Positions 8,041 through 18,270 of a stretch of DNA of 18,358 nucleotides are shown one piece after another. How positions within the stretch are numbered: position 1 is the stretch's first letter; each line of letters opens with the position of its first letter. The DNA lies in the NCBI GenBank assembly GCA_031370005.1, contig JANMPT010000026.1, forward strand, positions 1 to 18,358. The letters are read 5' to 3'. Made by a program: the position numbers and the translations under genes. Under the pieces are notes generated by a model that was not told the origin of the DNA, did not search any database, and saw nothing but the letters and a program-made list of their open reading frames with translations. The stretch comes from Bdellovibrionales bacterium (GTDB lineage Bacteria; Bdellovibrionota; Bdellovibrionia; Bdellovibrionales; Bdellovibrionaceae).

Positions 8041-8112
8041 TCCGAGAAGCGAAAGTGTCATCCGAAGCTCAAGGGCCTTTGGACAAGATACACACGTGCA
8101 AGCTGTGTAAAG

Positions 8113-8129
8113 CTGGCTTTGTCTTTGCT
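8113..8129 (+). promoter_or_regulatory. Putative sigma-54 promoter of comM
   Basis: CTGGC-TTTGTC-TTTGCT (GG 8115-16, N10, GC 8127-28); predicted +1 near 8140, just before ATG 8143. Confidence 0.45.
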
Positions 8130-8142
8130 CAAATTGCAAGGG

Positions 8143-9591
8143 ATGAAACTTAAATCACTTGTTCGCGAAAATTATTCTTTGGTTCCGGTAGAAATCGAAG
8201 TCACTTTGTTGCCGGGGCTTCCGACGATTCAATTTTTAGGACTTCCCGATCAGATCATTAAAGAAAGTATTCATCGAATCAAAAGTGCGATTCGTCAGCA
8301 AGGCTTTGATTTTCCGCGAACACAGCAGATTTTTGTCAATATTCGTCCGAATCACTTAAAGAAATCCTCTCGGGGGATTGAGCTTGCAGTGGCCGCAGGG
8401 ATTTTGTGGGAAACAGGACAGCTTCCCTTTCCGCTGGCACAAGATCATTTTTATATTTACGGAGAGTTGGGGTTGAGCGGGGAGGTCTTTGAGCCTGAGG
8501 ATCTGGCCAGTGATTTTGATGCAGGAAGCGAGACCCAAGTTCTGACTGGTAATTTGAGTTCTATTTGTTGTCCATTTTCACGGCGCGTGATTCATGAGCT
8601 TAAAAATCTGCCGCAGGCGCAATTTCACGCACCAGAAATGAAAGCCTTGGCAATTGAAAGACCCCAGGTCGGTTTGGATTTTTATTTTGATGAAGTCCAT
8701 GCTGAAATACTTTCTCTAGCAGCCTTGGGTGGTCACTCCATGTTGCTTGCAGGGCCCTCGGGTTCTGGGAAAACGACAATTGCTAAAACCCTAGGGAGTC
8801 TTCTCGAAGAGCCAAGGCCAGAAGAAATTTTAGAAATTAAGAAAATCAATAAGGACTTTCATAACGGAGATAGTTTGTGGAGACCTGTGATTAATCCCCA
8901 CCATTCAAGCACCCCTCTTGCTTTGATTGGTGGAGGTGTTCCTCCGAAGCCCGGCGAGATGAGCCGGGCTCATCGGGGGTTGTTGATTTTAGATGAGCTC
9001 TTGGAGTTTGACCCCAAAGTTCAAGAGAGTTTGCGCGAACCTATGGAGGAAGGCGTCTTAAGGCTTTCCAGAGGCTCCAAGGCGATGAAATACCCAGCTA
9101 TGGCTCAAGTGGTAGCCACCACCAATCTTTGCCCCTGTGGGGATTTTACTCCAGGCTGCCGGGCTCAATGTCGTTTCTCCTTGGTAAAGTGTAAGTCTTA
9201 TGGGCAAAAATTATCAGGCCCTTTGGTGGACCGTTTTGAAATTTTATTTTTCACCAATAAGCGAGACCGATCCTCGGAGGACATGAAGGTGACAGGTCAA
9301 GGAATTTTGGAAAGGCTCGAAATGAGCCGCAGATGGTTGCGTGAGTTGGGCCGTGGACCTCTGGCGAATTCACGCCGACCGATGCGTGAGATCGAAAGCG
9401 AAGTGGATAGTTTCTTTTTTAAGCACATGATGAACAAGGATCTCGGATCTGAGCGCCGCTACCAGGCAACGCTTCGAGTCGCAAGAACTTTGGCGGACCT
9501 TGAAAGGGTGGAGTTTGTTCAGGGCTCTCATGTTGAGCGAGCCCTCAAGATTACCTGGGCACCTTTTGAGAAACTCAGGCGCTGGGATTAG
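8143..9591 (+). CDS. comM: YifB/ComM Mg-chelatase-like AAA+ ATPase (ATG 8143 preferred to TTG 8119)
   Basis: GLP...GLPD..IKES..RIKSAI, Walker A GPSGSGKT, PHHSS, GGG..PKPGE.SRAHRG.L.LDE, LREPMEEG, CPCG, LSGPLVDRF, LRVARTLADL. Confidence 0.9.
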   Translation: MKLKSLVRENYSLVPVEIEVTLLPGLPTIQFLGLPDQIIKESIHRIKSAIRQQGFDFPRTQQIFVNIRPNHLKKSSRGIELAVAAGILWETGQLPFPLAQDHFYIYGELGLSGEVFEPEDLASDFDAGSETQVLTGNLSSICCPFSRRVIHELKNLPQAQFHAPEMKALAIERPQVGLDFYFDEVHAEILSLAALGGHSMLLAGPSGSGKTTIAKTLGSLLEEPRPEEILEIKKINKDFHNGDSLWRPVINPHHSSTPLALIGGGVPPKPGEMSRAHRGLLILDELLEFDPKVQESLREPMEEGVLRLSRGSKAMKYPAMAQVVATTNLCPCGDFTPGCRAQCRFSLVKCKSYGQKLSGPLVDRFEILFFTNKRDRSSEDMKVTGQGILERLEMSRRWLRELGRGPLANSRRPMREIESEVDSFFFKHMMNKDLGSERRYQATLRVARTLADLERVEFVQGSHVERALKITWAPFEKLRRWD

Positions 9592-9644
9592 GTTGACTCA
9601 GGGCTCTCCAGCCTTTAATTTGATCTCTCTTTTTGACCAACAAT

Positions 9645-9718
9645 GGTGGTGTGGCCGAGGGGTTAGGCAGAGCTCTGCAAAAGCTCGTACATCGGTTCAA
9701 GTCCGGTCACCACCTCCA
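9645..9718 (+). tRNA. tRNA-Cys (GCA)
   Basis: Acceptor stem GGTGGTG/CACCACC, discriminator T and encoded CCA; anticodon arm GAGCT-CT-GCA-AA-AGCTC (GCA 9677-79); T arm ATCGG-TTCAAGT-CCGGT; 74 nt. Confidence 0.97.
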
Positions 9719-9826
9719 ATTTTCCGAAACGAAAACTCCCAAAAAATCGAAAATCCCTAGAAATCCAAGTAAGTGATTTCGTATATTTAAACCAGTTCAG
9801 AGTGCTTAAACATAACTCGACATCAC

Positions 9827-9870
9827 AGTACACTGAAGCCAGGGCTTACTTGGTTAAAATCTCGTATTGA
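9827..9870 (+). pseudogene. Extreme 3' stub homologous to the coupling-protein-like remnant at 15423-15551
   Basis: YTEARAYLVKISY* versus YPEAQAYLVDVNP*; 9827-9854 and 15508-15535 match at 23/28 nt. Confidence 0.55.
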
Positions 9871-9909
9871 GACACCTAACCTATTGTACTTTATGGTATT
9901 TTAATTAAC

Positions 9910-9938
9910 TTGAAATGTCTTTTAAGACATGACATAAT
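9910..9938 (+). promoter_or_regulatory. Sigma-70 promoter with palindromic operator across the spacer
   Basis: TTGAAA-N17-CATAAT; ATGTCTT-TT-AAGACAT at 9915-9930; further GACAT copies follow. Confidence 0.65.
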
Positions 9939-9972
9939 AGACATGATGAAATAGTCAAGGAAGAAGCTGGAT

Positions 9973-10425
9973 ATGCCGATACCTAAGTTAACAGCAGGGG
10001 AGCTACCTACCGGAGTTCATATCGCAACTCTGGAAGAAGTAGAGCAGAGTTTTGGTGTTCAGAATGACCGCAGGAAACTTTTGATGGCGGGGCTAAGCAC
10101 GGTCGTTCATATGTTTCAGGCGGCCGGGGTAAAATTTGTTTTAGTGGATGGCAGCTTCACTACTGAAAAAGAGGAGCCTGCCGATATTGACGGGTGTTGG
10201 AGCGCCGCTGGTGATGTTGATTTTCACCGGATTGATTCTGATTTTTGGGACTTTGATGACATAGTTGATTTTCAAGAAAAGAGAAAGCTTGTAAAAGAGC
10301 GCTACGGCTTAGACTTTTTCATCGCAGAGTCAGTCGAGGGAGGTTCTGGAAAGCCTTTCTCTGAGTTCTTCCAGACAAACCGAGACGGTTACCCTAAAGG
10401 GATACTAAAGATCGTACTTAATTAA
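9973..10425 (+). CDS. DUF6932-like pol-beta-fold nucleotidyltransferase, putative toxin
   Basis: IP....GELP.GVH.AT.EEV...FG..RR..L, then VDGSFTTEKEEPADID (GS + DxD), ending RDG.PKGILKI. Confidence 0.8.
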   Translation: MPIPKLTAGELPTGVHIATLEEVEQSFGVQNDRRKLLMAGLSTVVHMFQAAGVKFVLVDGSFTTEKEEPADIDGCWSAAGDVDFHRIDSDFWDFDDIVDFQEKRKLVKERYGLDFFIAESVEGGSGKPFSEFFQTNRDGYPKGILKIVLN

Positions 10426-10436
10426 GGAGATGGTTT

Positions 10437-10865
10437 ATGATTACAAGTGATAGACAGCTAAAAGTCACAAAAGAGAAAATTGAAGATTTTAAAGCCTCTC
10501 TTAAGCAAAAGCCTAATGAGAAAATGAATCCTGTCTTGCAAAAAGCAGCACGAGTTCAAATCGAAGCGTTAATCGCGGAGTTGCAAGAGCACGTCAACGA
10601 TTACGAGCATTTGAAATCTGACGGTATTCCTGCGATTCAAGTTAAAACACCAATGGATATTTTCCTTCTGCCGATTCGGTATAGAATCGCAAAGAATATG
10701 TCGCAAGAGGCATTTTCGCAGTTTGTAGGGGTGGGTTTGCGTCAAATTGCTCGCTATGAAGCAGATGGTTACGAGAATATCCAAGGGGATACGCTCAAAC
10801 GAATACTTGAGAAGCTCTCGTTGAATTTGAACCATGCTGAAATTCGGGAAAATAAAGTTGGGTAA
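10437..10865 (+). CDS. XRE/Cro HTH protein with N-terminal helical hairpin, putative antitoxin
   Basis: AAGGAG RBS; MITSDRQLKVT...LQEHVNDYEHLK then RYRIAKNMSQEAFSQFVGVGLRQIARYEADGY; 11 nt downstream of the NTase gene. Confidence 0.85.
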   Translation: MITSDRQLKVTKEKIEDFKASLKQKPNEKMNPVLQKAARVQIEALIAELQEHVNDYEHLKSDGIPAIQVKTPMDIFLLPIRYRIAKNMSQEAFSQFVGVGLRQIARYEADGYENIQGDTLKRILEKLSLNLNHAEIRENKVG

Positions 10866-10885
10866 GGGCTCCTTTTAAAATGAAC

Positions 10886-11225
10886 TTACGAATAAAAAAA
10901 CTGCATGAGTTTGCAAACAGTTTCAAGCGTTGGGTCCTTCGTGCTGTCAATGGCATCAGATATCAAGGCTTGACTAACTTTTGTTTTTTTTTGAAACTTT
11001 CGCAATGCCATGAGTTCTCGTCAGGGCTCCCATAATATCTTGAACCGCCTCTTTGTCGCCATCGCGAAAGGCCTCGAGGAGGCCTTTAAGCATCACGTCG
11101 GGATTATCCTTTATCCATTGAGCTGGTGAGTGCTCTGTCAATGTCATTTCGCCGATTTTGATTTTCTTCGGTGTGGATTTTATCGGCGCTTTTTTTCTAT
11201 TTATTGCGGTTTTTTGTTTGCCCAT
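10886..11225 (-). pseudogene. HI1420-like addiction-module antidote, frameshifted in an A9 tract
   Basis: Removing one base from T9 (10984-10992) gives ...GIAKVSKKTKVSQALISDAIDSTKDPTLETVCKLMQFFYS* (112 aa), completing the HTH and the N/DPTL motif. Confidence 0.75.
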
Positions 11226-11604
11226 TTTTATTCCTATCGAACCATGCCGACGATGCCCTTATGACCTTGAAACTTTCGAATCTCCGATAATAAATGAACC
11301 TGCAGTTTTGCATTAGTCCGACAACTTTTCGTTGATATGCAAAATGGGCCTCTCGTAGGATCAACCAGTGGTTGTCGCGTTGCCATCCCTGCAGATTCGC
11401 GGACCAGAACTCAAAATGGTGATCCCCGGCGCTAAAGGCGGTGCGAGTAGGCTCATTGCGCCCTTCATTGGTAATTTCAAGCAATTCTCCGGGGTCGGCA
11501 CCGCGAAGGACCAGAGAGAAGACCTCTATCGAATAGCCAAAACGCAGCCCTCGATAGACTCAACGGTTTTAGTGAATTTGGCGAGTGATCGGCAGATAAA
11601 GCTA

Positions 11605-11766
11605 AGCCTTAATCGGAAATGGATCAGCCCACCTATGGAAGGCGCCTGGAAGGATTATACCCAGAAAAAGGTCTATAAGGGGGCTTCTGATCTGCCATCG
11701 GATCTTGGTCAAGCATTCGAATTTATTAATAAATACATATACAATGTTACTAATGTTGCTAAATAG
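11605..11766 (+). pseudogene. Possible 3' fragment of an AbiEii-type toxin gene
   Basis: MEGAWKDYTQKKVYKGASDLPSDLGQAFEFINKYI resembles AbiEii C-termini (M..W..Y.KK...LP.....I); the upstream part of ORF 11368-11766 looks unrelated. Confidence 0.35.
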
Positions 11767-11784
11767 TAAGCTTTTAGCTAAAAT
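11747..11784 (+). promoter_or_regulatory. Sigma-70 promoter with operator-like repeats, probably leaderless
   Basis: TTGCTA-N17-TAAAAT ending 6 nt before ATG 11791; TTACTA-N11-TAGTAA spans the -35; TTTTAGCTAAAA palindrome overlaps the -10. Confidence 0.6.
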
Positions 11785-11790
11785 AGTAAT

Positions 11791-12381
11791 ATGTCGAGAA
11801 AAGAAGCCAAAGTTCCTACTATTAAATCGGGAGTCTACAAGCACTCAGAGTTGACTGAAATGCTGGGCTCCCGCATGGCCGTAAAGAGGGCTCTCACGGC
11901 GCAGTTGATAGAGAAAGTATCGAGGGGCTTCTATTGTACGCCGGATATTGCAACCAACGAGGCCTATTACAGCGTCATTAAGAAATTCTACAAAGAGGCT
12001 GTCATTTCCAAGCGGACGCTACTGTATCATTATCGTTTAACCACCAACCAGCCGGACTTGATTGACGTTGATGTGCCGCAAACGTCTAAGTTGAGAAAAG
12101 GAACAGACCTTCTTGAGGTTCATAGGACGAATAAAATTTTCGGCCTGAGCAGTGCTGAGTTCAATGGCATAAAACTAAAATGCTATTCTGTTGAGCGCGC
12201 TTTGTTTGAGGTTCTTTCTTTTGAAGAAAAGCCCGGAAGTCTTACTTCTGAGATTATTCACAACTATCTTGCTAGTTTCAAGTATGATCCAGCGGCCATT
12301 CATGCTCTGGGTTTAAAGTTTGGTTCACGAGGGGCTCAGCTTGCGAATTTGATACAAGTTATGGCTGGGGATAAGTTTTAA
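11791..12381 (+). CDS. abiEi: Type IV TA AbiEi-family antitoxin/transcriptional regulator, orphan
   Basis: wHTH ending IEKVSRGFY; AVIS..T.LY.Y.LT...P..IDVDVP; KCYSVERALFE; no toxin gene downstream. Confidence 0.8.
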   Translation: MSRKEAKVPTIKSGVYKHSELTEMLGSRMAVKRALTAQLIEKVSRGFYCTPDIATNEAYYSVIKKFYKEAVISKRTLLYHYRLTTNQPDLIDVDVPQTSKLRKGTDLLEVHRTNKIFGLSSAEFNGIKLKCYSVERALFEVLSFEEKPGSLTSEIIHNYLASFKYDPAAIHALGLKFGSRGAQLANLIQVMAGDKF

Positions 12382-12502
12382 GCTCATCTCCCTATAAGGA
12401 AATTCGTTCTTAAAAAATAGGTGAATTCCAATCCACAACCAACAAATCCCCAGTATGAACTGATGACAAATGCATCAGTGAACCCGCCCTTCATGGCCAT
12501 CG

Positions 12503-12607
12503 TACTGTTGGGTCTTGGAGAATAATCCGACTACTCGTTTCTACGAAAAATCTGGAGCTGTTTTTCGCGGTCAAACCAAGTTTGACGAAATTGGTGGTCA
12601 AAATTTT
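12503..12607 (+). pseudogene. Internal fragment of a GNAT acetyltransferase
   Basis: YCWVLENNPTTRFYEKSGAVFRGQTKFDEIGGQNF matches the GNAT WVL..NP...FYEK.G...EIGG motif; both ends are missing. Confidence 0.7.
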
Positions 12608-12821
12608 CTTTTTTGTCTGAGTACTTTTCGACGATGGCCGAAAGTTGCGTTTGAAATTTTTCACTTTGCTCGCCGTATTTTTGCATGATTAAGCCCGAAA
12701 TAGACTTTACGTCGCCTTTAGTTTGTTCCAGTTCATCTGCAGTTAGCTTTCCCCAGGTCCTTTGAATTTCGCCTTTGATTTCAAGCCATTTACCTTTAAG
12801 TGTTGTTTCGTTAATTGTCAT
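12531..12821 (-). CDS. csbD: CsbD-family stress protein, C-terminus probably replaced by read-through
   Basis: LKGKWLEIKGEIQRTWGKLTADELEQTKG....GLIMQKYG; AAGGA RBS; the last ~22 codons are the antisense of the GNAT fragment. Confidence 0.8.
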   Translation of the reverse strand: MTINETTLKGKWLEIKGEIQRTWGKLTADELEQTKGDVKSISGLIMQKYGEQSEKFQTQLSAIVEKYSDKKENFDHQFRQTWFDREKQLQIFRRNE

Positions 12822-12846
12822 AAATTTCCTTTGTGTAATAGATTAA

Positions 12847-12879
12847 GAAATTGAATCTCAAGATGAGAGATTCAATTTC
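12847..12879. terminator. 13-bp perfect inverted repeat between the OmpA gene and csbD
   Basis: GAAATTGAATCTC-AAGATGA-GAGATTCAATTTC; AT-rich with no long U tract, so it may instead be a processing/stability hairpin. Confidence 0.45.
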
Positions 12880-12910
12880 AAGTGATGATCGGTGGAAGAT
12901 GGACTTTGAA

Positions 12911-14287
12911 TTATTGGGTCAAAGTGTTCGGTGAAAGAATAATATCAACGCGTCTGTTCTGAGCGCGGCCTTCTTTAGTTTTATTTGTCGTTAAAGGTTT
13001 TGAATATCCGTAACCTTCAGACTGAATTTCCACATCACTAAGTCCATTTGATTTAAAATACGTGGCCACAGATGAAGCTCGGCTTTCTGAAATGGTTCTA
13101 TTTTCAACTTCGCCGCCCACTGAATCAGTGTGTCCTTCAACGGTTATATGTGAAGTATTTAACGTTTTTGCAACATCCAATACTTTGGCTAGCGAAGGAA
13201 TAGCGCTAGCTGGCAAATCAGACTTTCCCGAAGCAAAATTAATTTGCTTTAATCGAATCACTAAATTTTCACCTTGTTGATAAGCATCGGCTTCCGATTT
13301 TGAAAATTGCGACCTGGCTTTTTCAAGTGCGCGCTGAATTTGAACTTTGTAGTTGGCGTTGTTCAGCTTTTTTGCATTGGCATCGTTTGTCGAAGACAAT
13401 TTATCATTTTCAAGTTGCATCGCTGTTTGATTCGCCTCGTCTTGGGCCGTAACTTTTACTAAGTTCGTTTCCAAGCCAGAAATGGCTTTATTCTGAGAAA
13501 CCATTTTGATCGCAACAGGTTCTGCGAGATTCTTTCCATTTTCTGCGATTGTCGCCATGACATTTGAAAGTTGAATCGTATCTAGATTTGCTTTCGCTAC
13601 AGCTGTTTTGTAGCCTTCTGGATTTCGAACATTCGTTGAAATTATCGATTCCGCCGTTTTCAGAGAGAGCTGAGCCGCTTTAAAGCTTATTTGGAGCAAT
13701 CTTTTTAGCCTTATCATTTTCTGCGCCATTTACTTTTGCCTGACTTTGACCAAGTTGGGTTGCAATCACAGCTCGACGTTCTAAGTCGATATATATATTT
13801 TGATACTCTGATAAAGTTTCAGCTTTTGTCTGTGATAATTTTTCAGCCTTGTCACTGACTTTGGAATCCAAATTGTTCAGATCATTCCGTAATTCCGAAA
13901 TGTTTCCAGCCCCCGCTTTAAGCGCCATTTGCCGAGCGGCAAAAAGTCCTTCGGCTTGAGCCTCTTTATTTCCAGATTTTGAATACGCCTCTATAAGATA
14001 GCCTCTAGCGACGCGGATAGTATCTAGAATTTCGTTTTGAGGTTTCCCATTTTTCAAGTCCATTTCGGCTTGATTTAAATTTGATTTACTTTTTTTAAAT
14101 TCAGACGCGGCCAGAACATCGACGTTTTTTAGAATGGCCGTATTAATATCTGTTGATAGTTTACTTATTTCTACACGCGGCTCAGCTGTAGAGGGAATAT
14201 CTGCCATATGAGGCGTAGCGCACCCAATAAAGAAAAATGCAGTTAAAATTAGAACGGAAATAAAATCGAACGGTTTTTTAGTATCAA
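12911..14287 (-). pseudogene. OmpA-family lipoprotein with long helical N-terminal region, two frameshifts
   Basis: C-terminal INFASGKS..EGHTDSVG..N..ISESRA..V..GYG.SKP...GRAQNRRVDI. Deleting one base near 13688 joins IAPN-SFKAAQ; adding one base near 14259 restores GGAG-N6-TTG MILKNRSILFSVLILTAFFFIG-C (458 aa). Confidence 0.8.
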
Positions 14288-14518
14288 AAGTTTCTCCAAA
14301 CATGGTTAGTGAACACAAATTTGAAGAATTTCAAATATGCAGTCGAAATGATTATATGCCTGTTTATTTTTTTTGCACTACTCAAAATGGAAAGCGTAGT
14401 AATACGGCTTTTTGCAGTTGGCTAGTGCTCTGCAATCATTTGGCTGTTCAGTTTCAAGTTATTCTAAAAAACTTTTCGCCAAGAACACATACTTGTGAAT
14501 CTCATCCGGCATCATAAA

Positions 14519-15365
14519 TTAATCCTTCAAACCCGACGATTTAGGAATCGTGAAACTGAAAGTGCTTCCAACGCCGAGTCTAGAGCTAACCCATAGACGT
14601 CCTTGGTGAGCTTCGACGAGCATTTTAGATATATAAAGGCCCAAACCCAATCCAACTCGATTATTCATCCCCAGCTGGGCATAACGTTCAAAAATTTGAA
14701 GTCTTTTTTCTTCAGGAATACCTGGTCCAGAATCACAAACGGAAACTTGATACTCGGTTTCATTAAAAGTTATGTCGACAGTGATGGTGCCGCTTCCAGG
14801 TGTAAATTTAAGAGCGTTCCCGATCAGGTTAGAAAGTACCTGCATAATGCGATCTTTATCACAAAAAACTTCACTAGGAATATCAGTTTGTACGGACTTA
14901 AGAAGCACATTTTTTGCGAGCGCAGTTTGCGCAAAGCTGTCAATGGCTTCCTGTATTATTTGGCTTAAGCTATACTTTTCCAGTTTGAGTTGAAGCTTTC
15001 CACCCTCAATGCGTTCCATATCCAGTAAATCAGCGATTAAGCGCAAAGACGTATCAATATTTCTTTTTATGAGCTCAACCGATTTACGCGCCTCAGTTCC
15101 TAAAACTAGAAATGCAGGATCTTCTAAAAGCATTTCTGCACACAGGGAAGCCGTACCAATTGGATTCTTGAGATCGTGACTGACGATTGCTAGAAACTCA
15201 TCTCTAGTGGTCAATGAAATCTTGGTCTTAGAATGCTCTGAGACTTCATCCGAAAGTAAGCCAGTTGTATGTTGCCTTCTGAATCAGTTCTTGTTCGCTC
15301 GGCAGAAAGATTTTTGTCGGTCAACTTTCGCTCTTGTTCGAACAACTGACTTGCGAGTGCACTTT
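14519..15365 (-). pseudogene. Sensor histidine kinase (HisKA + HATPase), frameshifted and apparently 5'-truncated
   Basis: H box SHDLKNP, N box NLIGNALKF, G1 DSGPGI, G2 GLGLGL; one base missing near 15275 joins ERKLTDKNLSAERTRTDSE to QHTTGLLSDEVSEHSKTKISLTTRDEF; no good start/RBS upstream. Confidence 0.78.
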
Positions 15366-15422
15366 TTAATTGACGACTAAGCAGACTGTGCGTTTTGGAT
15401 TTTTTATATCGACTCAAGCAAG

Positions 15423-15551
15423 GGCCGCAAGCTTGAAGTCGAAGAGTTCATCATTCACCCGAATCTGGCAAAGTCCCTAAAAGTCGGCAAATGCGTCTGC
15501 ATTAAGAAGTACCCCGAAGCCCAGGCTTATTTGGTGGATGTAAACCCATAG
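15423..15551 (+). pseudogene. 3' remnant of a type IV coupling protein (TraD/VirD4-like) gene
   Basis: GRKLEVEEFIIHPNLAKSLKVGKCVCIKKYPEAQAYLVDVNP* resembles the E..F.IHPN..K.L..G.C C-terminal motif of TraD-like coupling proteins; no start codon. Confidence 0.6.
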
Positions 15552-15573
15552 TGTCTCAGTTTGAGATAGGCTT

Positions 15574-15666
15574 CAGGGGTATACCCTAGGTATATCCCTG
15601 CTGATTTTATTAAACTTGACTCTTGCCATAGTTTGAACAATTCGATATAAATATACCATGGGTATA
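15574..15666 (+). promoter_or_regulatory. abiE promoter/operator region, probably leaderless
   Basis: TTGCCA(15623-28)-N17-TATAAA(15646-51), 6 nt before the ATG; TATACC-N3-GGTATA at 15580-94 and 15652-66; TTAAACT-N13-AGTTTGA around the -35. Confidence 0.7.
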
Positions 15667-16452
15667 GTAAAACAGACAAAATTAAACTACTTAATGCGAA
15701 ACTGGCCAGACGGAAAAATCAAGAGCTCTGTCTGGCTAAATGCCGAAGGCTACGGGGCAAACTTTATACAGAAATACAAAAGCAATAACTGGATCGAGGC
15801 CATAGGCACTGGGGCATTCAAAAAATCAGGCGACGAAGTCACTTGGGCCGCCGCCCTTGAGTGTCTGCAAAAACAATTAAAGTCAGAAGTTCATGTCGGC
15901 GGAAAAACTGCTATTGAGTTTGCTGGCAAGGCCCAGTACTTAAAGATGAAAGAAACAAGTGTCGTGGTGCTATCGAATAGAAAAGAAGCTCTGCCAGCTT
16001 GGATGAAAAAACATAATTGGAATGTGAATTTGGAATTTAAAGTCAAAAATATTTTTAAATCAAATTTGGCTTTTGGTGAAAAATCAAATGGCTTCACTGT
16101 TGTTGATACAGGCAAAGCCTCAATAATAGCTTCGGCTCCGGAAAGAGCCTATTTAGAATACCTTGATGAACTTCCGAAATCGGCCTCTTATACCGAAGCT
16201 AAAGAAATCATGGAAAACATGATCTCGCTTCGACCAACAATGGTTCAGCACCTTTTAGAAAACTGCACCTCTTTAAAAGTGAAAAGACTGTTTTTGCATT
16301 TCGCTGCAAAGATAAATCATCCTTGGTTCAAAAAGATGAGCCTTGAAAAAGTAGATTTAGGCACTGGCAAAAGAGTCATATTTCAAAACGGCGTTTTGGA
16401 TAAAAAATATAATATAACTGTACCGAAAGATGAATCCCGTGAAGAAGTCTAA
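15658..16452 (+). CDS. abiEi: Type IV TA AbiEi antitoxin (AbiEi_3-like)
   Basis: TKLNYL..WP.G...SVWL...GY, HVGGKTA...GKAQYL, LPAW, SAPERAYLE, SLRP..VQ.LLENC.S.KVKRLFL, VDLGTGKR, KYNITVP. Confidence 0.92.
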   Translation: MGIVKQTKLNYLMRNWPDGKIKSSVWLNAEGYGANFIQKYKSNNWIEAIGTGAFKKSGDEVTWAAALECLQKQLKSEVHVGGKTAIEFAGKAQYLKMKETSVVVLSNRKEALPAWMKKHNWNVNLEFKVKNIFKSNLAFGEKSNGFTVVDTGKASIIASAPERAYLEYLDELPKSASYTEAKEIMENMISLRPTMVQHLLENCTSLKVKRLFLHFAAKINHPWFKKMSLEKVDLGTGKRVIFQNGVLDKKYNITVPKDESREEV

Positions 16453-17347
16453 ATTTTATTCGCAAGTTGTTCTGCTGCTTGATGTGCTTCCGTACATCGC
16501 AAAAGAGTCTTGCTTTGCTCTTAAGGGTGGAACCGCTATCAATTTATTTATCAGAGATTTCCCGCGCCTTAGCGTGGATGCAGACTTAACTTATCTTTGT
16601 AATGAGTCTCGCGGAGAGGCTCTAGAAAAAATGGAAGAAGCCCTACTTCGAATAAAAAACGATTTAGAAAATCAAATTGGCGCAAAGGTTATTCCCAGCT
16701 CTCGCCAGTCACAAACAACAGATATTAAGCTATTTGTAAATCGTGACGGAGTTCAAGTAAAAATAGAAGCCAATCCTGTTTTGCGCGGAGTTCTTTATCC
16801 GGCTAAGACAATGTCTTTAAATTCAAAAGTGAGTTCTGAATTTGACAAAGAGTTTGATATTCAAATTTCAAGTTTGCCCGATCTTTATGGCGGTAAAATC
16901 GCAGCGGCTCTTGATCGCCAACATCCACGAGATTTATTCGACGTTAGGTTACTTCTGGAAAACGAAGGTATTTCAAAAGACATCATGACTGGATTTCTAG
17001 TCTATTTGATGTGCCACAAGCGACCACCGAATGAATTACTAAAACCAACTTTGCAGGACCAATCAGCGCTTTTCGATTCAGACTTCAAAGGCATGACTAA
17101 TATAGCATTTGATTACGCAGATTTTGAAAACACTCGAGAAGCTTTGATAGAAAAAATCAACAAAAGCATAAGTAGCTACGACAAGAAATTCTTGCTCTCG
17201 TTTTTTGATGGCAAGCCTGACTGGAGTCTATTCAGAGAATCACAAGCGCAAGAGTTGCCAGCGATCAAATGGAAGCTTATCAACTTGAACAAACTCGATT
17301 CAGCTAAAAGAACTGCGCAGATCGAGTCGTTGAAATCTATTTTCTAA
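16430..17347 (+). CDS. abiEii: AbiEii/AbiGii nucleotidyltransferase toxin
   Basis: FALKGGTAINLF..RLSVDADL, VKIEANPVLRG, LYGGKIAAALDRQHPRDLFD, LPAIKWKL.NL; overlaps abiEi by 23 nt. Confidence 0.93.
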   Translation: MNPVKKSKFYSQVVLLLDVLPYIAKESCFALKGGTAINLFIRDFPRLSVDADLTYLCNESRGEALEKMEEALLRIKNDLENQIGAKVIPSSRQSQTTDIKLFVNRDGVQVKIEANPVLRGVLYPAKTMSLNSKVSSEFDKEFDIQISSLPDLYGGKIAAALDRQHPRDLFDVRLLLENEGISKDIMTGFLVYLMCHKRPPNELLKPTLQDQSALFDSDFKGMTNIAFDYADFENTREALIEKINKSISSYDKKFLLSFFDGKPDWSLFRESQAQELPAIKWKLINLNKLDSAKRTAQIESLKSIF

Positions 17348-17414
17348 AAGCAGAAGCAATTTTCCTCCTTACGCCAGGAGCTCTAGACTTAACCAACCAC
17401 CTTATCCCACCCCT

Positions 17415-17447
17415 AAAAGAAAAAGTCCTGATTTTAATTCAGGGCTT
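17415..17447. terminator. Putative intrinsic terminator between abiEii and convergent sequence
   Basis: AAGTCCTGA-N7-TCAGGGCTT hairpin with an A-rich tract on its left (a U tract on the minus strand). Confidence 0.4.
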
Positions 17448-17509
17448 AGATGATTATTCTATATCTCGAAAACCAGCGGTTTTAGTCATCGACTCGGATA
17501 AATAAATAT

Positions 17510-17758
17510 TTATCTAGAAAAATATTTTTTGGCAAACTCAGGGTTGTACATTTTTCTCCACCTCAAATAGCCTTGAAGGCCGAGTCCTTCAGGCATCTTA
17601 TTAGCTTCAACTATAGAAATTGAATCGATGACAGGGTTACTTCTGATAATTTCTCGAATCCCACCGTCGATATTAGTCTGATAGTCCCTATTCATTGCAG
17701 ACGCTGCGCCATAATTAGCTCCGGCCGCTGCGTAAGATAGGTCAGTTCTAATAATATT
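17510..17758 (-). pseudogene. Probable 3' fragment of an unknown gene
   Basis: The frame stays open upstream of ATG 17695 to 17758 without a start or RBS; no family recognised. Confidence 0.3.
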
Positions 17759-18018: not shown

Positions 18019-18270
18019 ATGGCAGCCCAAAAACCAGTTAAAAAAGATAAAGAAAAAAAAGTATCTAAAATTAAAGTTACCGGATTTGTACCTTTAAAAT
18101 TCAAAGAATTTACTATCACTCAAAAAGCCTCAGGTCGTTATGAAGTCGTCAATGCAAAGGGCGCTAACGTAAATGGTGCTGAAAAAGTGAGTCTTTTGAC
18201 CGAAGCCAAGCTACTTAAAGTTTCTGAGAAAAAAGCAGCTACAGAGGAAACAGCGACTGCAGCGAACTAA
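18019..18270 (+). CDS. Small Lys-rich hypothetical protein
   Basis: GGAG RBS, TTGACC-N18-TAAAAA upstream (17942-17971); core EFTITQKASGRYEV...VNGAEKV.LL.EA.LL. Confidence 0.8.
   Translation: MAAQKPVKKDKEKKVSKIKVTGFVPLKFKEFTITQKASGRYEVVNAKGANVNGAEKVSLLTEAKLLKVSEKKAATEETATAAN

Follow-up and report, generated by a model that had tools for sequence, protein, structure and literature searches.

Coupling-protein gene tails and a toxin–antitoxin-rich cargo slot in probable remnants of mobilisable elements at a Bdellovibrionales tRNA-Cys

The window analysed here is a whole contig of 18,358 nt, with the contig end at 18358 (JANMPT010000026.1, assembly GCA_031370005.1 of a Bdellovibrionales bacterium; C28 of genome G000 in our numbering). 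Its focal features are two short forward-strand stretches, stub 1 (9827–9870) and stub 2 (15375–15551), which are for the most part supported as remnant 3' ends of the gene for a TraD/VirD4-like type IV coupling protein (T4CP) of small mobile elements in Bdellovibrio-like bacteria. On the same strand, a comM-like host gene with a Mg_chelatase/ChlI match (8119–9591) forms the left flank and is followed by a tRNA-Cys (9645–9718; ARAGORN), the integration site, by the left end of the element family, an attachment (att) arm cut off after ~110 nt (9719–9830), and by the last ~44 nt of a T4CP gene as stub 1. Behind stub 1 lies slot module 1, i.e., a DUF6932 protein (9973–10425; PF22014, E 2.5e-31; PADLOC PDC-M63A), a predicted pol-beta-type nucleotidyltransferase and putative toxin, with an XRE-type putative antitoxin/repressor that matches HTH_3 (10437–10865). 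Stub 2, the last ~175 nt of a T4CP gene including the stop codon, precedes slot module 2, an AbiEi_3 antitoxin (15658–16452) and an AbiEii nucleotidyltransferase toxin (16430–17347), each matching its own family model and called AbiE by PADLOC. The two-gene modules named in the initial annotation are thus confirmed by Pfam-type matches and PADLOC, while a third slot module (11518–12386) and the left end had escaped it. The operator-bearing promoters that it described are suggested by a sigma-70-like promoter overlapped by two AGACATG repeats before module 1 (9910–9945, plus strand; putative operator) and by a 12-bp inverted repeat before abiEi (15574–15600; putative AbiEi operator), the latter giving 15658–17347 the AbiE organization of an AbiEi–AbiEii bicistron with an upstream inverted repeat. 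For the DUF6932 protein, the nearest Atlas clusters are NTP_transf_2 at 0.83, which is a lead only; a search against solved structures gave no match and a literature search on DUF6932 found nothing relevant.

Stub 1 reads YTEARAYLVKISY and a stop codon at 9829–9870, and stub 2 reads ...EEFIIHPN...KKYPEAQAYLVDVNP and a stop codon, ending at 15551, at the places and with the translations first reported. The best ungapped 28-mer between them, at 9827 and 15508, agrees at 23/28 positions, a value never attained when the 254-nt region was shuffled 2000 times with dinucleotides preserved (maximum 21); the pair is also the sole one in the window at or above 23/28, and ten shuffled windows gave none. 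The resemblance of the longer stub to TraD/VirD4 C-termini is well founded: a 47-aa query from stub 2 has matches in 57 of the family's 181 other genomes, chiefly at the C-termini of 430–480-aa frames, with up to 81% amino acid identity to the ends of ~437-aa T4CPs, and two full-length homologues score above the cut-offs of PF12696 (TraG-D_C) and PF02534 (T4SS-DNA_transf). The best plasmid match of stub 2 is a Bdellovibrio plasmid gene. A DNA hidden Markov model (HMM) of the T4CP tail, trained on 32 full-length genes, locates stub 2 at 15375–15548 (E 2.9e-30), so that its homology begins at 15375 and not, as initially placed, at 15423.

Positions 185–220 of the same model find stub 1 at 9827–9862 with a genome-wide E of 0.75, which is weak alone. 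Support comes from its surroundings, since the adjoining ~110 nt behind the tRNA-Cys represent the left end of this element family and end at stub 1. This left end is 72% identical over 136 nt to that of L039 (E 4e-13), in an alignment that takes in the last ~29 nt of the tRNAs; an HMM from the left ends of 14 other elements matches 9704–9830 (E 9.7e-7 genome-wide), and the left-end homology stops where the tail homology of stub 1 starts, at a shared AGTAC overlap. That stub 1 is a chance match, with stub 2 alone a T4CP remnant, would accord with its length of just 44 nt and its poor score in the whole genome; this appears most improbable in view of the shuffles, the exact start of stub 1 at the end of the left-end homology, and the occurrence of a longer subtype of DUF6932 + HTH module behind T4CP tails in L037, L079 and, by eye, L167. 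Rather, a single microhomology deletion of ~2.4 kb, removing a hairpin, the relaxase gene and most of the T4CP gene, would have joined stub 1 to the left end. A match in C87 upstream of stub 1 was rejected, as it sits in an unrelated coding gene. The att core would be the last ~10 nt of the tRNA-Cys, to go by the junctions of integrase and left end in L035, L079 and L089. Of the two members that the initial annotation had landed at the tRNA-Cys, stub 1 alone stands on an element end there; stub 2 would derive from a second, tandem member.

The family to which these remnants point was delineated from 40 loci with wide flanks, drawn from 78 matches of the stub 2 query by score and probable length of the contig. 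They are usually arranged as left end, relaxase, T4CP and variable genes, and intact members comprise a tRNA 3' end, a left end of ~500 bp with a conserved inverted repeat, the relaxase, a T4CP of 430–450 aa and cargo. A tRNA gene lies on the same strand within 3.6 kb upstream in 18 of the 40 (13 His, 3 Met, 1 Pro and 1 Cys); integration at tRNA-Cys as first proposed does occur (L069), within a wider use of tRNA 3' ends in which tRNA-His dominates. One inverted repeat at ~290–350 nt from the tRNA is present in 14/14 aligned left ends and is a candidate origin of transfer (oriT). The relaxase is MOBC-like (Replic_Relax), with PF13814 above cut-off in two of four proteins and NF041423 MobC below its cut-off (E 5.5e-12). 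Full-length T4CPs have a Walker A motif at residue 35–59 and an invariant IDEF motif, and match TIGR03743 (E 1e-26), below the cut-off of that model. An N-terminal transmembrane domain (TMD) is found in most, though not all, T4CPs. Here, such a segment is missing from 31/31 full-length proteins, with no 19-mer above 0.96 before Walker A by hydropathy alone, whereas the VirD4 of an integrative conjugative element (ICE) in L063 reaches 2.15 on the same scan; the T4CP family thus appears to be uniformly without a membrane anchor, which is unusual.

A tyrosine integrase (PF00589) is present in six loci (L034, L035, L037, L070, L079 and L089), and in at least one fully traced member it stands with an excisionase at the far end. 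The copy in L089 (G161) is ~19 kb downstream of the T4CP of L049, with a tRNA-end-like core after it. L035 and L079 have such a core behind the integrase and then the left end of the next element, junctions that show members stacked in tandem. Between tRNA and T4CP there is nothing but the left end and the relaxase, and annotation covered part of the distal cargo. The conjugative or mobilisable family of the initial proposal is retained as probably mobilisable, by the type IV secretion system (T4SS) of another element, and not as self-conjugative. A scan of species-representative genomes gave 78 loci, of which those above ~45% identity come from records labelled as Bdellovibrionota taxa, save three loci from two records labelled Proteobacteria/Pseudomonadota.

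Several observations on this backbone may be recorded alongside. By eye, L063 (1–19901) and L074 combine an ICE-like T4SS cluster having a membrane-anchored VirD4 with a serine-recombinase-like gene, the relaxase–T4CP module and three repeated tails; cluster and module are candidates for a helper and its hitchhiker side by side. In L054, L062, L066, L068, L070 and L071, two divergent relaxase-like genes stand in tandem before the T4CP. On plasmid AP029177.1 (L001, 9073–12252), a membrane-anchored T4CP gene is interrupted by an insertion sequence (IS)-like transposase pair, and the plasmid is typed as non-mobilizable despite Replic_Relax, TrbI-like and TraG P-loop genes. Elsewhere in G000, a family left end stands behind a tRNA-His (L131; C99, 12045–12213) with a HigB/HigA-like pair ~300 bp on by eye and no relaxase or T4CP, and contig C105 carries a relaxase-like gene, a recombinase-like gene and a weak left-end match.

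What follows the T4CP gene could be tallied in 38 of the 40 loci, the other two having no downstream DNA. A TA or defence family occurs among the first two open reading frames (ORFs) in 22/38, a count that includes three NCBIfam matches below cut-off and one JetD fragment, and that treats the unscanned 2645-aa ORF of L060 as a miss. Eleven short-flank loci gave nine TA matches. At least 16 module types are represented: five AbiE-type pairs, PIN, RelE, PemK, HipA, Gp49, HI1419/20, HEPN, DUF4258, DUF6932, DUF6036, Fic/Doc, Abi_2 and PDC-S31; metal-efflux and secreted proteins are also among the slot cargo. Homology between loci ends in the last 3–4 codons of the T4CP gene, which marks the slot boundary, and four T4CPs with 87–90% DNA identity bear four different first cargos. 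Relatives of the window's own modules sit in the same position: its AbiEi_3 and AbiEii are 70% and 67% identical at the amino acid level to genes directly behind an intact T4CP in L036, and the third module (plus strand), consisting of the 3' half of a 5'-truncated AbiEii gene and an intact AbiEi gene (11791–12381; PADLOC AbiEi), is 91% identical over 869 nt to one that immediately follows a T4CP stub in G082 (L108), its own T4CP tail being gone. Because these neighbours are variable and TA-rich, and include relatives of both AbiE modules, the slot is real and TA-biased, and not exclusively defensive; the variable defence slot initially proposed must therefore admit non-defence cargo. The slot shows the high turnover and the enrichment of defence and TA genes that characterize hotspots beside an anchor gene, a pattern that is weaker in further loci.

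A plainer explanation would have members accrete in tandem at a tRNA and then decay by random deletion, the T4CP being merely the last backbone gene and neither slot nor tail having a special role. Such accretion and decay to cis-mobilizable elements (CIMEs) is standard, as sections of PMC5704250 describe; ORFs at ranks 5–8 behind the T4CP also include restriction–modification, OLD/UvrD, TIR and some TA genes, slot-type modules stand deeper in the cargo without a tail in L042, L044 and L049 (where no hidden mini-tails were found before them), and the tail query is biased toward 3' remnants. Against it, Pfam TA matches fall steeply with rank, from 22/74 ORFs at ranks 1–2 (30%) through 6/67 at ranks 3–4 (9%) to 6/114 at ranks 5–8 (5%), although the Fisher p of 1e-5 for ranks 1–2 versus 5–8 is overstated by kinship and distal ranks may hold host genes. 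As the tail-specific divergence among close relatives and the displaced native tail of L083, set out below, also argue for a special role of the tail, we regard plain accretion as unlikely.

The slot has features worth noting in their own right as candidate defence or TA genes: a first-slot pair of an HNH-like 231-aa and a 223-aa protein (L049, 12134–13570), a 434-aa first-slot protein (L053, 6492–7793), and a pair of a 110–126-aa protein and an HTH protein (L054, 12396–13171; L055, 12174–12924) that is also present on C67 of G000. In the related elements L020 and L051, an IS91-family transposase lies directly behind the T4CP. A third tail-like stretch of G000 (L130; C99, 134101–134143, minus strand; E 0.05) precedes a DUF4258 + MqsA-like pair, which is also the cargo of L041 and L048, and seems fused to a HepT-like gene fragment at a short shared sequence.

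The tail of the T4CP gene also appears to be subject to exchange. The 29 close pairs compared were selected solely for identity further than 180 nt upstream; their identity is 0.79 in the last 60 nt versus 0.86 and 0.85 in the two preceding bins. Among 1349 distant pairs, by contrast, conservation of the last bin is the highest of the three (0.64, 0.63 and 0.53). In the close pairs the last bin is the lower one in 5/7 clades, one clade giving 20 of the 29 pairs. In three pairs (L083/L126, L068/L125 and L007/L026), identity drops from ~0.93 to 0.63–0.70 at the VG.C..KKYP motif; a separate set of 11 pairs was picked after tail divergence had been seen. In L083 the body of the gene is 85–89% identical to L054/L126, against 77% for the in-frame tail region and 92% for a displaced tail that lies 126 bp downstream; the in-frame tail is foreign and the native one displaced. 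In L063 a full T4CP is accompanied by three tails, and each of these is closest to its own gene; L036 and L078 have two tails each. Divergence among close relatives together with repeated and displaced tails suggests crossover inside the tail, and it is likely, to judge from such comparisons, that crossovers here between related elements drive the cargo swaps.

These data also bear on how far the tail is an active participant. It might act as a recombination anchor in its own right, at which tail-headed DNA crosses in, restores the C-terminus, and replaces the resident cargo or pushes it downstream, building integron-like, tail-headed arrays without a cassette integrase; the stubs of the window would then be cassettes and not only deletion scars. 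Such a process is compatible with the decay of tandem mobilisable elements and differs from it in the origin of the stub arrays. Besides the close-pair divergence with its sharp steps and the extra tails, it is favoured by six stubs that start 44–73 nt from the stop, with one more found by HMM on C99. A fixed, site-specific break point was rejected, as breaks lie anywhere between 44 and 903 nt from the stop and are thus not strictly site-specific, and a cluster of breaks at 152–177 nt was set aside because the gene is most variable there; an integron would have a cassette integrase and a fixed attC-type crossover, which this spread does not resemble. Likewise, same-cargo pairs do not clearly share tails, their tail-similarity ranks being 6, 10, 19, 63 and 317 of 496, and L007 and L042 share cargo with divergent tails; the close pairs come largely from one clade, the fusion of stub 1 to a left end is the signature of a deletion, and repeated or displaced tails occur in only four loci besides the window. 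An active anchor of this kind appears quite possible, if short of probable. Its strongest form, in which the last 60–100 nt of the anchor-less T4CP gene would be a dedicated anchor that stacks and swaps TA/defence cassettes in integrase-free arrays (L063, L083 and the window), we offer tentatively. If true, the latter would amount to a cassette system on the tail of a coding sequence and furnish a phylum-wide positional probe for defence genes.

It remains very probable, in our estimation, that the window holds decayed, immobile remnants of Bdellovibrionales integrative mobilisable elements (IMEs) at the tRNA-Cys, and that the slot behind their T4CP turns over fast with mostly TA or abortive-infection-type cargo; the remnants retain three slot modules. 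In the course envisaged, an element would excise, borrow the T4SS of a helper ICE or plasmid, and integrate in tandem at tRNA ends; related elements would swap cargo, the left crossover often falling in the conserved last 60–100 nt of the T4CP gene; backbones would then be deleted, stub 1 arising where left end and tail became joined at 5 nt of microhomology; and TA modules with their promoters would persist via addiction or a defence benefit, leaving scars of tail plus TA. Twenty 3' T4CP remnants with an internal break are on our list, and eight of nine inspected 5'-only candidates proved to be contig ends and one an internal fragment, with 16 weak matches unlisted and the two queries differing; retention of TA module and promoter during erosion of the backbone would fit these counts.

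Several results weigh against this interpretation in addition to the poor score of stub 1 by itself. No left end or att core was found before stub 2, and no tRNA-end repeat downstream of the stubs up to the contig end, so that no right end was found. Behind further stub or secondary tails, TA genes occur in only two of nine cases. Among 17 further close loci (23 loci of the species-representative scan minus two that were too short and four that were distant), the slot is TA-like in three by Pfam and in four more by eye, and in four it holds a metal-efflux gene. The sole close homologue of the window's 150-aa DUF6932 protein (G064) is not behind a T4CP. DUF6932, DUF4258 and DUF6036 were counted as TA genes, which we take them to be, their toxicity being putative. 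Nine of ten tRNA-adjacent loci showed no tyrosine integrase in the additional downstream DNA that was fetched, which implies that many members are larger or decayed.

The comM–tRNA-Cys locus was compared in relatives, as the initial annotation had advised: the gene order is conserved in 6/6 other genomes of the genus and the DNA behind the tRNA differs. Between modules 1 and 3 on the minus strand is a frameshifted HI1420-type antitoxin gene that has lost nearly all of its toxin (10895–11232; 72% identical to an intact pair on C54; TIGR02684 below cut-off); the ORF at 11197–11484 was rejected as a HigB toxin, as it has no family match and homology to the C54 pair is confined to the antitoxin. 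An intervening minus-strand block (12531–15417) encodes CsbD, an OmpA-domain protein, a lipoprotein and a split histidine kinase; the first three were absent from the fetched element loci, where the kinase has distant paralogues only. The kinase gene (14519–15417, minus strand) is split into two ORFs beside stub 2. Two short stretches at 17390–17758 recur in G000 (96% on C67 and 91% on C51), and the gene at 18019, queried as a right-flank marker, had no match with this query in the six other genomes of the genus. No relaxase, integrase or oriT of the family is present in the window, the left-end inverted repeat is also missing, and no T4CP body was found anywhere in G000. Contigs from a public run, which may be the source and is thus not independent, bridge 8108–10455 and 11959–17456, so that both junctions are present in that assembly too; no joint linking the two stubs was seen in contigs of two runs, in which rare variants are dropped.

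The palindrome noted initially at each stub, TCTCA-N3-TGAGA, is exact at the second (15554–15566) and has one mismatch in its core at the first (9860–9872), and a further copy in the window starts at 12856. As a signal of the element or slot it was rejected, being genome-wide in the host, spacer-specific and rare behind tails elsewhere. G000 has 27 exact copies versus 2–6 for other spacer lengths and 3.7 expected, most of them 50–230 bp ahead of host genes, of which many look lipoprotein-like or secreted by eye; an exact copy lies within −15 to +235 of only 2/59 tails (five with up to one mismatch), and the motif is degenerate at the homologous place in L036. It is probably the site of a host transcription factor, and a literature search for the host motif found no regulator. 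The motif is near all three T4CP-tail-like sites of G000.

The tail is matched in about a third of the genomes of the family (57/181), and it can serve as a precise positional anchor for new TA and defence genes in predatory bacteria, with the unassigned first-slot genes as candidates. A literature search of open-licence text, whose supplements might list such elements, found no description of the element family or of tail exchange. Among known systems, the streptococcal IME_Class_8 (Coluzzi et al. 2017, PMC5357655) is non-self-transmissible, as the elements here probably are, and is alike in encoding both a PF13814/MobC relaxase and a VirD4-type coupling protein of its own; it differs in its serine integrase and the order coupling protein–relaxase–integrase, against relaxase–T4CP–cargo and mostly a tyrosine integrase here, a serine-recombinase-like gene (labelled by eye) standing beside the module only in L063 among the loci gathered ahead of the species-representative scan. 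MOBC1 plasmids, e.g., CloDF13, likewise combine their own VirD4-type coupling protein with a PF13814/MobC relaxase and are non-self-transmissible in the account of PMC7431656, where a passage states that the TMD of CloDF13 MobB is essential for mobilisation; the T4CPs here are without such a segment. CIMEs and tandem accretion at tRNA ends are likewise described in PMC5704250, and the decayed elements of the window resemble them in being probably stacked at one att site without transfer or integration genes; a CIME, by the definition in that section, keeps attL and attR, whereas only a left end was found here and what recurs as a remnant is the tail of a coupling gene together with TA.

A parallel might also be struck with the anchor-gene defence hotspots of P2/P4 (Rousset et al. 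2022, PMC9122126) and with Pseudomonas GI-Hotspot 8, which is flanked by traD (PMC12629846): as portrayed in the relevant passages, these too are small high-turnover loci beside a conserved gene, rich in defence and TA genes and suited to guilt by position. They differ in hosts and elements, and here two-gene TA modules dominate, the boundary lies within the last codons of the anchor, and the tail of the anchor appears to be exchanged and duplicated; where the turnover mechanism of the P2/P4 hotspots stays speculation in the wording of a passage in PMC9122126, here the sequence itself offers a candidate crossover interval. Hybrid SXT/R391 ICEs form by inter-element recombination (Garriss et al. 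2009, PMC2786100, in the part concerned), and are similar in that related elements recombine at one site and so reshuffle their cargo; they need recA and an element-encoded Red-like system, whereas the crossovers here seem focused on a gene tail of 60–100 nt. As for the cargo, both module 2 and the third module fit the AbiEi/AbiEii models and are ordinary members of the AbiE family, the third being truncated, and module 1 (DUF6932 + XRE) is a different, uncharacterised nucleotidyltransferase pair. The element family is seen as a MOBC/T4CP variant of IMEs, new in its apparently anchor-less coupling protein and its TA-biased first slot, and probably also in exchanging the slot via the tail of the T4CP gene.

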